DNA from: an uncultured Candidatus Saccharimonadales bacterium
GTDB lineage: Bacteria > Patescibacteriota > Saccharimonadia > UBA4664
Assembly (NCBI GenBank): GCA_964467655.1
Contig: CAYXSN010000008.1
Location: 78 to 64,077, forward strand
Direction of reading: 5' to 3'
Length of the DNA stretch: 64,000 bases
Each line of letters opens with the position of its first letter. The first letter of the stretch is position 1. Shown one piece after another: positions 37,861 through 42,596 of this stretch. Position numbers and translations under genes: made by a program. Below the pieces are notes generated by a model. The model saw only the letters and a list, made by a program, of their open reading frames with translations. It did not search any database and had not been told where the DNA came from.

Positions 37861-37938
37861 GGCGGGTGTAGCTCAGTTGGTTAGAGCGCTAGATTGTGGC
37901 TCTGGAGGCCGTGGGTTCGAGCCCCATCACTCGCCCCA
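37861..37938 (+). tRNA. tRNA-His (GTG) with encoded G-1 and CCA
   Basis: GGCGGGTGTAGCTCAGTTGGTTAGAGCGCTAGATTGTGGCTCTGGAGGCCGTGGGTTCGAGCCCCATCACTCGCCCCA; extra 5' G pairs with discriminator C. Confidence 0.85.
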
Positions 37939-37945
37939 GGAATTA

Positions 37946-37972
37946 TAAACAGCGGCAAATGCCGCTGTTTTT
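37946..37972 (+). terminator. hairpin AAACAGCGGC-aaat-GCCGCTGTTT plus TTG directly after tRNA-His
   Basis: perfect 10-bp stem followed by T-rich run. Confidence 0.55.
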
Positions 37973-37992
37973 GTGTCCACATCGGGATAATC

Positions 37993-38026
37993 GGCGGTTC
38001 TAACCCTTTCGTATTCGGCGGCCAGG
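37993..38026 (+). repeat. R0: copy of the conserved GGCGGTTCTAA...CGGC(G/C)(G/C)CCAGG motif (family of five)
   Basis: GGCGGTTCTAACCCTTTCGTATTCGGCGGCCAGG; compare R1-R4 and the tRNA-His 3' end. Confidence 0.5.
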
Positions 38027-38308
38027 GCGGGATAGCGTTCTGCGATCGGAATGAGCCATTTATTGGGTTCAATACGCAGCTTTCCGTCTAAAAGCGTGGG
38101 GTTCGAACCTAATGCGCTCAATATGCTCCGCTTTGTCTCATAGCTGCCGCTGGCAAAGGCCTCGCGGGCGCCGCACGCAAACTTGAACGTCTGCTCCGTA
38201 AGCTCAAACCACTTTTCGGCGCGGCCGGCCGTTTCGCGCTGCTCTTTTTCCAGCCGAGCGATTTGTGCCTTAAGCGTCTCGCGCTCTTTCGTGAATTCCT
38301 CATCCTTG

Positions 38309-39109
38309 TCAACCTCTACTTTTTCCGGACACCAATTCTCTTTCATCTAAGCTAGATCTGAGCTTTGCAGCATAAGCTGCTGGCGGCATTTTCAACGCGG
38401 TGTGAATGCGCTGGTGGTTGTAATAATAAATGGCTCGGGCAATGGCTTCGTGGAAATGCGGCAGGTCTTGGTATTGGTTGAGTGGGCCAAGTTCAAGCTG
38501 AATTGTCCACATGAATCGTTCCATGAACCCATTTTGCCAAGGGCTGGCTTTGTCGGAGCAGGATAGCGTAATTTCGAGTCGGTCGCACAATTCCTGGTGC
38601 TTGTAGCTGAGGTATTCGGTGCCTTGGTCGGAATGCAGGATGTCCGGTGTTGGGTGTTTACTCAGCGCGTCTACGACGGCCGCATACGTCAGTTCACTGG
38701 AATGGCTCAGTCCCAACTGCCAGCCCAATATCTGCCGGGTTGCCAGGTCAAGAACCACGGCCAAGTACCAGTAATACCGGCCAAGCCACAAGTAGGTGAA
38801 GTCTTGCACCCAAGCCCCGGAACGCACCATACCGGCGTAGCTTTGGCCATCCTGAGGCCGGTTAGGGTCGCGAAAGGTAGCGTAGGACTTGAGGGCATTG
38901 CCGGGTGCCGTAATCTCGGCCGGTACCGTCCGAGTGGTTTTGCGCTTCTTACTCGGTCGGGGAATAACCAGACCTGCCAGGTTGCGGATGCGCCGGGTTT
39001 TCTTCTCACTCCAACGCAGGTGGAGTGCCAGCCGCTCGACGCCGTATAACGGGTGTTGGGCATGGGCCGCCAGGAGCTCTTGGATTGCGAGCTCGTCCCG
39101 ACTCCGCAA
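38309..39109 (-). CDS. IS3-family transposase OrfB (integrase core, DDE)
   Basis: HSDQGTEYLSYKHQ and PWQNGFMERFMWT motifs; reading frame stays open upstream to 39211 in the -1 frame relative to orfA, across slippery run CCCAAAAAG. Confidence 0.9.
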   Translation of the reverse strand: MRSRDELAIQELLAAHAQHPLYGVERLALHLRWSEKKTRRIRNLAGLVIPRPSKKRKTTRTVPAEITAPGNALKSYATFRDPNRPQDGQSYAGMVRSGAWVQDFTYLWLGRYYWYLAVVLDLATRQILGWQLGLSHSSELTYAAVVDALSKHPTPDILHSDQGTEYLSYKHQELCDRLEITLSCSDKASPWQNGFMERFMWTIQLELGPLNQYQDLPHFHEAIARAIYYYNHQRIHTALKMPPAAYAAKLRSSLDERELVSGKSRG

Positions 39110-39201
39110 GGTTACGGGCTGGTCGTAGTAGCTGCTGAGCGATATCCTCAGCCTGGCTACAAAATGCCGGCGCCATCCCGGCTCGACTTCTTCCAGGATG
39201 G

Positions 39202-39459
39202 CTAGCTTTTTGGGCGTTGCATTTCGGCGGTAGCCCGACCGAGTAAACGGTATGCCTGCTCCAGCTCTTTCTTGAGCCGGTTGTTTTCGAGTATAAGGTT
39301 GCGATTGCCGTCTACGACGCCCTCGCGGAGCCAGTTGTAGATGGTTTTACTTGAAATGCCATACGTGTTGCTGACTTCAGTAACACTCACGCCTTCATGG
39401 CGTATTTTGGCAATAATCTCAGTTTTGGTTTGGGGGTCGGTGGTTTTGCCGGTTGGCAT
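39202..39459 (-). CDS. IS3-family transposase OrfA (HTH)
   Basis: HTH ISSKTIYNWL plus leucine zipper LILENNRLKKELEQAYRLL; ends ...CAA CGC CCA AAA AGC TAG where the -1 frame continues into orfB. Confidence 0.85.
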   Translation of the reverse strand: MPTGKTTDPQTKTEIIAKIRHEGVSVTEVSNTYGISSKTIYNWLREGVVDGNRNLILENNRLKKELEQAYRLLGRATAEMQRPKS

Positions 39460-39552
39460 CTGGACACGCTCCTTACGAGTGATTTGCGTAGTTTATACGG
39501 TTATCTTGAAAGAGACAACATGTCCATTATTAGGGCAGGGTTACAATGGCGA

Positions 39553-39703
39553 GCTGCGACAAAAGCGAGCGGACACGCTCGTGCGTACCCTTGAAAAAGA
39601 GTACGACATAGACCTCGGCCGTCGTGGTGATATGCGGCTCGGCACCCTCCGTAAGGAGCTAGGTGTCACCGATATCAAGGACATCCTGAAGCGCAGCCGT
39701 TAA
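39553..39703 (+). pseudogene. 3' fragment of a gene cut by the IS3 insertion (…GELRQKRADTLVRTLEKEYDIDLGRRGDMRLGTLRKELGVTDIKDILKRSR)
   Basis: in-frame coding-like sequence with high GC3 begins exactly at the IS boundary; no start codon outside the IS. Confidence 0.3.
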
Positions 39704-39841
39704 GGCTTAGCTCTTGATGAGAGGGGGAACCAGGTAAACTTCCCACTCGCACAAAGTTCCAAGCTATATTGCTTATGGTCAATATAACATAAGCGTAATG
39801 GAGTGATCAGCTTAAGCGGCCAGCTATTGATATTTAAGCTT

Positions 39842-41281: not shown

Positions 41282-41396
41282 TTTAGACCTAATATCATTC
41301 ACCATCAGGCAAATCTGGGCATAACATGCGAAGCCAAAGGTCTTCTCCATCAGCTCAAGCCAATTCTTGGCTCATTACACGAGTTCAGCGCTTGAA

Positions 41397-41440
41397 GTGT
41401 GGTTCTAATGCCCTCCAAGATCCGGCCCCATAACGCTTAT
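41397..41440 (+). repeat. R3: TGTGGTTCTAATGCCCTCCAAGATCCGGCCCCATAACGCTTATG (att-like repeat)
   Basis: aligned with R2 and R4. Confidence 0.6.
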
Positions 41441-41455
41441 GTTTAAAGAGGCTCC

Positions 41456-41818
41456 ATGGTCTCTTTTTGCTATATACTAAAAAACATGAGTAAACGTAAT
41501 TGGCTTTCCTCCATAAGGCTTGGGTATTGGCCAGTGGCGGTTTGTGCCATTGTGCTTATAGCTGAAATAGCTATCGAGCTATATCCCGAGGCAGTTCAGA
41601 ATTGGTACTACTACAACACATCCGTGAGTGGGCTAGACGAAATATTTGTGGTACTCAACCTGATGGTTAAATTAGCTGTGGTCCAAGTCCTAATGGTACT
41701 CTTGGCCTGGCTTGGACCCGGTGTTAAAAACCGAAAGCTATCAATTGCGCTGTGCAGCTCCATGATTGTTACTGAAATCATTTTCGCGACCGTAGTTTAT
41801 CATTTCCGCGGATACTAG
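41456..41818 (+). CDS. cassette 3: AT-rich small membrane protein (about 120 aa, 3-4 TM)
   Basis: RBS AAAGAGG; about 40% GC, unlike neighbours; N-terminus MVSFCYIL is echoed by a frameshifted remnant after R4. Confidence 0.4.
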   Translation: MVSFCYILKNMSKRNWLSSIRLGYWPVAVCAIVLIAEIAIELYPEAVQNWYYYNTSVSGLDEIFVVLNLMVKLAVVQVLMVLLAWLGPGVKNRKLSIALCSSMIVTEIIFATVVYHFRGY

Positions 41819-41840
41819 CATTGCCGTAAGCGCAACTGTA

Positions 41841-41880
41841 GTTTTTTATGCCCTCAACGATCCGACCCCAGGAATTATGC
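41841..41880 (+). repeat. R4: GTTTTTTATGCCCTCAACGATCCGACCCCAGGAATTATGC (att-like repeat, 5' part degraded)
   Basis: ends in ACCCCAGGAATTAT like the tRNA-His end; followed by hairpin AGACCCGAAAGGGTCT plus TTTTT (41883-41905). Confidence 0.6.
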
Positions 41881-41882
41881 CC

Positions 41883-41905
41883 GAAAGACCCGAAAGGGTC
41901 TTTTT
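41883..41905 (+). terminator. hairpin AGACCC-gaaa-GGGTCT plus TTTTT
   Basis: direct reading; lies just after R4. Confidence 0.45.
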
Positions 41906-42068
41906 GCTATGCTCAAGTTGTACTGACAGTCTTTCTAAGTTATTTCATCTTGAACGAGAAGGGGCATGTAATAAGGAAGATAGGCGCTGCCGTGATGGTA
42001 GTTTTGGCCGCCATCTTAATCAAAAGTTAGTTTACTCCCTACCAACCAAAACAACGTATAATCCTGGC

Positions 42069-42551
42069 ATGATCAGCCTAGCCAACTATTTCCACTACCC
42101 AAATATTCAGCTTGTTCGTATCAAAGCTGCCGACATTTCAGAGACCGTGGCCCTCATCAATAAAGCCTACGCCTATCAGGACGTGTACAAGCAGGCGCCA
42201 CGCACCAACCCTGAGCATTTGAGCAAAAACGCTACCGATAACGAGTTTTACATCGCAAAGCAGGGCGACGAGATTGTTGGCTGCCTGTATACCAAAAGAG
42301 GAGTTCACTCGGTGCATTTCGGGCTGCTAACCGTCGCCGATGAGTTTAGAGGTAAGGGGCTCGGGCCTGCTTTGATTGAAGCTGTCGAAGCCTTTGCTCA
42401 ACATACTGGCGCCAGAAACGTCGAGCTTGATTATATGTCGGCAGCGCCCTGGCTCAAGCCATACTACGAAAAGTACGGCTACGTTGAAACTGGTGAAATT
42501 ACCAATTGGGGAACGATTGATTTAATTCGCATGTCAAAGCCGCTGCTCTAA
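42069..42551 (+). CDS. cassette 4: GNAT-family N-acetyltransferase
   Basis: ...VGCLYTKRG...RGKGLGPALIEAVEAFA acetyl-CoA binding motif; start moved to MISLANYF. Confidence 0.7.
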   Translation: MISLANYFHYPNIQLVRIKAADISETVALINKAYAYQDVYKQAPRTNPEHLSKNATDNEFYIAKQGDEIVGCLYTKRGVHSVHFGLLTVADEFRGKGLGPALIEAVEAFAQHTGARNVELDYMSAAPWLKPYYEKYGYVETGEITNWGTIDLIRMSKPLL

Positions 42552-42596
42552 GTGAGAGCTGAGGGCAATGTATGAACCTACCAAAAGTCAGCTCAG

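Follow-up and report, generated by a model that had tools for sequence, protein, structure and literature searches.

Insertion of elements with SSV-type integrases into tRNA genes partitions the integrase gene, and the fragments that remain mark old insertions (PMC7253208). In the serine integrases, the 9-bp motif of the zinc-ribbon domain lies at half-site positions 16-24 in attP and at positions 11-19 in attB (PMC3783163). Here we analyzed a stretch of 64,000 nucleotides (the window) from contig CAYXSN010000008.1 of an uncultured Candidatus Saccharimonadales bacterium, a member of the Candidate Phyla Radiation (CPR, or Patescibacteria), in which five junctions and two remnants of a large serine recombinase (LSR) lie downstream of a single tRNA-His gene. 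The interpretation that we favor, with a probability of roughly 0.72, is that serial integration of LSR elements next to the tRNA-His 3' end built a small genomic island, now decayed. The array is itself decayed, yet it exposes a widespread family of LSR elements in ultra-small CPR bacteria, and in our literature searches we found no published description of such CPR serine-recombinase tRNA elements.

Behind tRNA-His, and on the same strand, are four related 30-nt repeats (R1 to R4, each an R), every one of them ahead of one small plus-strand gene. A repeat search of the window places all four in a single family of 36 nt with 69-78% identity. A degenerate R pattern gives three matches in the 64 kb where 0.39 are expected, and an nhmmer profile scores R1-R3 at E values of 1e-5 to 1e-8, which is partly circular because the profile was built from copies of several genomes with R1-R3 among them. 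Neither pattern nor profile detects a further copy in the window outside 39.8-41.9 kb. The sequences to the right of R1-R4 align as one homologous module, consisting of GGAATTAT, a hairpin, a T run and then TTGCTATA, and this bears out an earlier first-pass annotation of the locus, which had seen a T-rich element or a hairpin after each repeat. In R1 both the CCA block and the GGAATTAT-like arm on its right side are decayed. R2 keeps GGAATTAT, the hairpin and the T run and has the appearance of an attP-like junction of two tandem units; in tblastn the region also aligns weakly with LSR residues 519-547 (E=0.11). To the right of R3 we find a hairpin, a T run and TTGCTATATACT, and to the right of R4, the most decayed copy, GGAATTAT, the hairpin GACCCGAAAGGGTC, a T run and TTGCTATGCT. 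The annotation had also described the ends of R2 and R4 as identical to the end of tRNA-His plus 8 nt, and CCCCAGGAATTAT is indeed present exactly at all three places.

The same annotation counted five copies in the array, of which the four named above are real and located downstream of tRNA-His; the fifth, R0, does not reach significance and lies inside recombinase coding sequence. As a DNA-level site R0 was rejected, its TTAGAAC being a conserved Leu-Glu codon pair in the LSR genes of four of five relatives; that TTAGAAC stands in a different frame within the window may be mere pseudogene drift. The octamer of GGAATTAT shared by tRNA-His, R2 and R4 also follows tRNA-Arg(TCT) (36326-36402), at 36318-36330 on the minus strand. 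Downstream of that octamer we found no hairpin, R copy or recombinase remnant, and it may be all that is left of an element at tRNA-Arg, or else a native feature exploited by the recombinase.

Repeats that are short, intergenic and near hairpins and T runs could also belong to a dispersed element with no link to recombination, such as a repetitive extragenic palindromic (REP) sequence, a miniature inverted-repeat transposable element (MITE) or a terminator or regulatory motif. We give this explanation almost no credence. The other ~59 kb of the window hold no copies, and it was copies unlinked to tRNA-His that the first-pass annotation had named as the sign of a generic MITE or REP element. 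R always lies in the orientation of the tRNA, its 3' end matches the local tRNA, and in relatives it is contiguous with LSR open reading frames (ORFs). Nor does R have a secondary structure of its own, as DNA folds of R1-R4 on both strands revealed no hairpin beyond shuffled controls (z-scores of -0.01 to +1.07). The absence of a hairpin, together with an enzyme that is an LSR and not an IntI-type tyrosine recombinase, also leaves without support the integron-like cassette system that had been proposed for the array. An Rfam scan of the window returned four tRNAs and nothing else, a megablast search of a plasmid collection returned tRNA matches only, and in viral contigs the five hits of the R pattern were chance matches in coding DNA, and the LSR had no relative.

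The identity of R emerges from its antisense translation. With TGG (complementary to CCA) as the first codon, the pattern W(G/L)(R/P)(I/L)(V/I)(D/E)D(V/I)RT is encoded by R2-R4 and by the majority of the copies of ten loci; the Trp is missing from R1 and from a few decayed copies. Where copies of R differ, the exchange is conservative or affects a third codon position, and the column entropy is lowest at second positions (0.43), followed by first (0.79) and third positions (0.93; p about 0.04-0.07). Full-length relatives located at the same tRNA position are LSRs with the Resolvase, Recombinase and Zn-ribbon domains (PF00239, PF07508 and PF13408). After their conserved Trp, 120 listed LSRs, sorted by eye, split into two tail classes: most read through the antisense of the tRNA (W..WDSNPR...), and about 13 of the 120 carry the R tail, e.g. 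WLPIVDDVRTKVQELGEKLIIPNL (five R-tails were caught by a strict pattern). R directly abuts the LSR gene in all six R-tail cases fetched (L049, L064, L065, L066, L067; loci and contigs are designated by L numbers). The LSR ORFs run on through R where they abut it, and through the antisense of the tRNA when integrated. From the identity of R with the LSR tail and from the abutting cases, we conclude that the LSR gene spans attP and that R represents its stranded tail codons. The family to which these enzymes belong is large, with at least 3495 clusters at E<=1e-20 in the homologue search, and those clusters whose source is named mostly come from Patescibacteria or comparable metagenome bins and are annotated as 'recombinase family protein'.

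The right arm of the site (GGAATTAT, hairpin, T run) is likewise the antisense of recombinase codons, namely those before the Trp (...KTEALASV...NSW). In the window, the arm directly behind tRNA-His reads ...KTAAFAAVYNS-W in antisense and forms the terminator for tRNA-His. The tRNA terminator hairpin (e.g. ACAGAGGCTAAAGCCTCTGTTTTTGC) at 37951-37975 has equivalents in L023, L049, L051 and L054; its antisense encodes the conserved recombinase residues K-T-E-A-L-A-S-V, so that one stretch of DNA serves as both codons and terminator.

Intact and tandem elements are present in relatives. The R pattern has a match in a Candidatus Saccharimonadia genome (L010) and in metagenome contigs, where the scan yielded 38 loci, about half of them chance matches in unrelated coding sequence. 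L023 carries the same Pro-Gly-Arg-His tRNA cluster as the window, with an intact LSR of 538 aa whose stop codon overlaps tRNA-His, at the start of a 5.7-kb element that is followed by R. The order tRNA-His, LSR and R recurs in L051 with a 7.7-kb element, and in L052 tRNA-Asn is followed by an LSR and two R copies. Elements stand in tandem in L049, L052, L054, L064 and L066; in L049, L064 and L066 the order is tRNA, recombinase-less module, R and LSR element. Conservation of R extends over different species and over tRNA-His, tRNA-Asn and tRNA-Gln contexts, and every recombinase associated with R is an LSR. Four R-tail LSR contigs (5.4-10.6 kb) lack the terminal overlap of free circular episomes and are chromosomal tandems wherever a tRNA is visible.

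Several of these loci show further features. An AT-rich CPR contig (L022 9868-13381, with the same sequence as L019) has ten R-type copies and about six units of one or two genes, and some of its ORFs obtain their stop codon from within R. Four pairs of its R copies have a spacing of 55 nt, and similar pairs about 50-55 nt apart occur in L027 and L065; an LSR N-terminus lies 9 kb upstream, and the 14 kb contain no tRNA. In L023, 170 nt past R (about 2797-2779, minus strand), the 3' end of tRNA-His is genuinely duplicated over 19 nt (GGTCCCATCAACCACCCCA), ahead of a hairpin and a 105-aa membrane gene, which looks like the scar of another integration system with a longer core at the same tRNA. 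In L064 a second, shorter LSR (489 aa, 8833-10302) overlaps tRNA-Gln (c10288-10361) and the family LSR abuts R further downstream, so two different serine-recombinase elements are stacked at one tRNA. The LSR element of L054 abuts, at about 11640 on the minus strand, a 25-nt tRNA-like end, GGTTCTAGACCAAGGTGGCGAGCCA, with attB-type spacing; ARAGORN calls no tRNA here, and the sequence is perhaps a pseudo-attB or what is left of a tRNA gene. In L066 (2134-5657) an AbiEii-family gene and a trypsin-like protease lie in the module without recombinase that separates tRNA-Gln from the LSR element, so at least some modules carry defence-type cargo.

Pieces of an LSR of this family remain in the window. 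The minus-strand ORF at tRNA-His matches the integrase phrog_95 (E=2e-4) and shows 39-51% identity to five full-length LSRs in tblastn and blastp searches (E 1e-24 to 1e-35); with the C-terminal LSR fragment as query, phmmer recovers 979 representatives at E<=1e-3. The last codons of this remnant, W-G-E-stop, overlap the tRNA and are the antisense of its CCA end. An IS3-family insertion sequence truncates the gene and replaces its remaining part; no clear terminal inverted repeats of this IS3 were found. A second remnant, between the CPBP gene and R3, is matched by four of the five LSR queries in tblastn with 47-53% identity over 30 aa (E 9e-5 to 1e-3), and by the fifth query over 23 aa (E 4e-3). 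No intact LSR was found in the window by tblastn with the five family LSRs. The recombinase-type remnants in the window are LSR pieces and the IS3 transposase only, in searches that used LSR queries and were not aimed specifically at tyrosine integrases. Thus the absence of an intact integrase, which the first-pass annotation had reported, still stands for the window, and the truncated ORF that it had mentioned turns out to be the LSR remnant itself. The two remnants, one of them cut by IS3, and the lack of an intact recombinase in the window also agree with its suggestion that the array may be fossilised, and the array is probably inactive today.

Among the best matches to the LSR fragment of the window (P0126-P0274), most are short proteins of about 90-300 aa that correspond to the C-terminal part only; either such stubs are commonly kept beside tRNAs or assemblies often break inside LSR genes. 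Several of the organism's public contigs break at the end of tRNA-His or inside IS3 (L001, L002, L004, L062; the parent contig of L001, judged from its length, would stop within IS3), a hint that IS3 exists in several copies or that the population is not uniform at this point.

The spacing within R provides a second line of evidence. The stretch GG52-A76 measures 25 nt in each of the nine tRNAs with an encoded CCA (two tRNAs without CCA stop at 23 nt). From the GG of GGTTCTAAC, a look-alike of the T-loop GGTTCGANY, to the CCA it is 30 nt in every R, i.e. 5 nt more than in the tRNAs. In the left half-site, R and the tRNA thus differ as attP and attB do under the 5-bp spacing rule. The final 6 nt of R match the local tRNA, with GCCCCA or ACCCCA at tRNA-His, GAGCCA at tRNA-Asn and CAGCCA at tRNA-Gln; the tRNA-His of the window ends in GCCCCA (37933-37938), the block common to R2 and R3. 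Overall, R and the tRNA have a block of 6-10 nt in common (tRNA positions 71-76). By this alignment, GGTTC(T/G)A(A/G)Y would be the zinc-ribbon motif and the T-loop its attB copy, and the crossover would fall at tRNA positions 71-72. The central dinucleotide predicted in this way matches in R2, R3, L010, L023, L051, L052 and L064 and does not match in R1, R4 and L049. Where the first-pass annotation had recognised a degenerate 3' half of a tRNA (T-arm and acceptor), only the last 6 nt prove to be tRNA-derived, and the rest, with a T-loop-like motif at +5 nt, is antisense to the C-terminal codons of the LSR.

The location at a tRNA 3' end and the CCCCA common to repeats and tRNA might instead indicate a classical tRNA-linked island made by tyrosine integrases, with the repeats as degenerate direct copies of the tRNA-His 3' end, and this is the commonest known architecture, as in the tycheposons. 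We regard this as highly improbable for the present locus. The direct repeats of tyrosine islands are true copies of the tRNA 3' end, typically of at least 15 nt, and R has only 6 nt in common with the tRNA, exceeds the tRNA segment by 5 nt and is unable to form a T arm. Its conservation across different tRNA contexts and species and the exclusive association with LSRs, within the scope of the LSR queries stated above, likewise speak against tyrosine integrases. The window contains no longer copy of the tRNA-His 3' end, the terminal 20 nt having no second copy even at <=3 mismatches, and R has no hairpin; this excludes classical tyrosine-integrase scars and attC sites.

Serial integration of LSR elements, the interpretation that we favor, could have proceeded as follows. 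The LSR gene of this family extends across its own attP, with the codons just before the conserved Trp forming the right arm (P'), which makes the terminator hairpin on the tRNA strand. The Trp codon TGG lies antisense to CCA, and the ~10-35 tail codons after it (W-G/L-R-I-V-D-D-V-R-T...) form the left arm (P), which is R. Recombination with the final 6 nt of the tRNA (71-76) would leave the LSR gene abutting the tRNA (attL), while the tail codons would be left stranded at the element's opposite end (attR, i.e. R). The enzyme probably reads the universal T-loop and may be retargeted to His, Asn and Gln tRNAs through a few bases near the crossover. Units stacked in tandem would create the P|P' (attP-like) junctions at R1-R4, and since all four are followed by P'-type arms, we interpret them as such junctions and not as terminal attR sites. 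By this account the element next to tRNA-His would be the newest. Deletions and IS3 would then have removed the recombinases and most of the cargo, leaving one gene per unit. Counting the unit with the LSR and IS3 and the remnant before R3, the array would record at least five or six integrations. The repeated site-specific integration at the tRNA-His 3' end that had been put forward from the first reading of the sequence is therefore supported by the LSR remnants, by the LSR-tail repeats and by the relatives. The coordinates of the features are listed in the table below.

Table. Features of the island behind tRNA-His, with positions in the 64-kb window.
Feature	Position	Strand	Description	Evidence
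tRNA-His(GTG)	37862-37938	+	Encoded CCA; putative attB-type left half-site	ARAGORN; Rfam 64.6 bits; geometry table
LSR C-terminal remnant	37927-38346	-	~130 residues, corresponding to residues ~410-538 of full-length relatives; N-terminal ~400 residues gone	
P' arm of the putatively newest element	37939-37975	+	GGAATTAT, hairpin 37951-37969, T run	Terminator scan, right-arm alignment, antisense translation
R0	37996-38024	+	Weak look-alike GGTTCTAACC... within recombinase codons; not counted in the family	nhmmer E=16
IS3-family insertion sequence	38309-39459	-	orfB 38309-39109, orfA 39202-39459	Pfam rve, rve_3, HTH_Tnp_1
R1	39845-39874	+	GGTTCTAAGGTCGTCCGCTATCCGGAAACT; antisense FRIADDLRT	Degenerate pattern, repeat grouping, nhmmer E=1.4e-5
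Cargo gene 1	39965-40585	+	Cys-rich protein, 206 aa, high GC3	No family (Pfam) match
R2 and P' arm	40680-40760 (R2 40680-40709)	+	Antisense WGRIVDDVRT	nhmmer E=9e-8
Cargo gene 2	40772-41281	+	CPBP/Rce1-like intramembrane protease, 169 aa	Pfam PF02517, E=1e-14
Second LSR remnant	41282-41371	-	NWLELMEKTFGFACYAQICLMVNDIRSK (NWLELMEKTFGFACYAQ...); LSR residues ~435-466	
R3 and right arm	41401-41479 (R3 41401-41430)	+	Antisense WGRILEGIRT	nhmmer E=3e-5
Cargo gene 3	41486-41818	+	AT-rich membrane protein, 110 aa	ORF list; GC 0.45
R4 and P' arm	41841-41912 (R4 41841-41870)	+	Antisense WGRIVEGIKN	Repeat grouping, 78% to R2
Cargo gene 4	42069-42551	+	GNAT acetyltransferase, 160 aa	Pfam; gene call in public contigs

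Several observations weigh against this interpretation. At the central dinucleotide R1 has GA and R4 has AC where the tRNA has GC, and the codon periodicity of R is only marginally significant. The aligned right arms contain no inverted GGTTC-type motif at a distance of 16-24 nt from the common block and have in common only an AT-rich stretch, the hairpin and the T run, so that the LSR model of the site is incomplete. The right end of the island is unmarked, there being no R after the GNAT gene. Neither excised circles nor empty sites nor polymorphism among strains came to light: the organism's 12 public contigs are all 99.9-100% identical to the window, and look-ups of the flanking proteins revealed none of the cassette differences between strains that had been suggested as a check. 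Finally, every unit has its LSR gene deleted to within ~50 nt of the CCA with both arms kept, a pattern that looks less random than simple erosion would predict.

This last point bears on another possibility, that the single-gene units are working cassettes without a recombinase, each consisting of a minimal attP (R and P') and one gene, mobilised in trans by an LSR elsewhere with the tRNA end acting as attI, which would make the array the serine-recombinase equivalent of an integron. Each unit keeps ~45-50 nt of P' and 30 nt of P even though the recombinase gene is gone. Recombinase-less modules lie between the tRNA and an intact LSR element in L049, L064, L066 and probably L054, and the ten R-type copies of L022 delimit small units whose ORFs end in or at R. 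The Cys-rich gene, moreover, occurs with other neighbours in L063. We nevertheless think it unlikely that the units are working cassettes, since the window has no intact LSR, the public contigs show no polymorphism, the remnant within the CPBP unit points to the erosion of a full element, and R1 and R4 are decayed with central dinucleotides unlike that of the tRNA. To our knowledge, known LSRs do not recombine attP with attL or attP with attP, so mobile cassettes of this kind need extra assumptions. A broader proposal, which we put forward tentatively and consider doubtful, is that the CPR family reads the T-loop and CCA end as attB and that the exchange of the tail (RIVDDVRT...) for tRNA-antisense residues is a switch of directionality or stability that works without an excision factor. 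The tRNA|P' junction, which still presents an attB-type left half-site and so could accept insertions, would then take up further units, including recombinase-less cassettes in trans, and the system would be a serine-recombinase analogue of the integron and a main route by which these reduced genomes gain genes.

The genes of the region are as the first-pass annotation had identified them (CPBP/Rce1-like, GNAT, the IS3 genes orfA and orfB, and a Cys-rich protein without Pfam match), and so is their very different base composition: the GC content is 0.62 in the Cys-rich gene (GC at third codon positions, GC3, of 0.77) and 0.45 in the membrane gene, against a window mean of 0.55. There is one small gene after each repeat, but the distance of 20-100 nt given for it does not apply to the GNAT gene, which starts 199 nt from R4. 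For cargo gene 3 the public gene call is longer, at 120 aa with a start at 41456. A homologue of the Cys-rich protein with 64% identity is encoded in the metagenome contig L063, ~330 nt downstream of an apparent tRNA-His 3' end, and its neighbours differ, so the content of the island varies between apparently related organisms. Between IS3 and R1 there is a 51-codon ORF tail (...LEKEYDIDLGRRGDMRLGTLRKELGVTDIKDILKRSR; 39548-39703, plus strand) without a family match, which probably represents what remains of the 3' part of a cargo gene in the newest element.

CPR genomes are tiny, and little has apparently been published on how they gain genes. The LSR family described here appears to target tRNA ends by a retargetable rule that combines the T-loop motif with the last 6 nt, and the tail-codon scars of past insertions offer a means to map flexible islands in CPR metagenome-assembled genomes. 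The exchange of the tail upon integration may represent a self-regulating integrase design, and the enzymes could supply genome engineering with compact, naturally multi-target serine integrases that have predictable att sites.

In its relation to known systems, the locus is closest in mechanism to the large serine integrases (A118/LI, Bxb1, phiC31, TP901-1), with which the relatives share the Resolvase, Recombinase and Zn-ribbon domains, and whose attP/attB rule is kept in the left half-sites, where the 9-bp motif lies 5 bp further out in attP. Unlike in those integrases, the target here is the 3' end of a tRNA gene, with the T-loop as the putative recognised motif, the recombinase ORF crosses attP and has its C-terminal tail swapped on integration, the right half-site has no matching inverted motif, and tandem P|P' junctions are common. 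A recombination site inside the integrase ORF is also found in the SSV-type ('suicidal') archaeal tyrosine integrases. In contrast to these, the enzyme here is a serine recombinase, as the Resolvase-type catalytic domain of the relatives indicates, the hosts are bacteria of the CPR, and the final ~10-35 codons alone are split off, so that the integrated LSR is probably still functional. The tycheposons and other tRNA-anchored islands of Prochlorococcus show the same stacking at a tRNA, where newer elements push older ones inward, and similarly have tandem elements with att scars between them, degenerate integrase fragments and cargo of mixed origin, with an LSR in a minority of cases. However, those islands are scarred by genuine partial tRNAs and rely mostly on tyrosine recombinases, whereas the scars described here consist of recombinase-tail codons and only 6 nt of tRNA, in units reduced to single genes. 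Integron arrays, finally, resemble this locus in their one-directional single-gene units, in the conserved recombination-site repeat between units and in the fixed anchor site adjacent to them, but here there is no IntI and no folded attC (the R''-L''/L'-R' imperfect hairpin); the sites are double-stranded LSR-type half-sites, and each unit brings its own terminator and T-rich TTGCTATA element.

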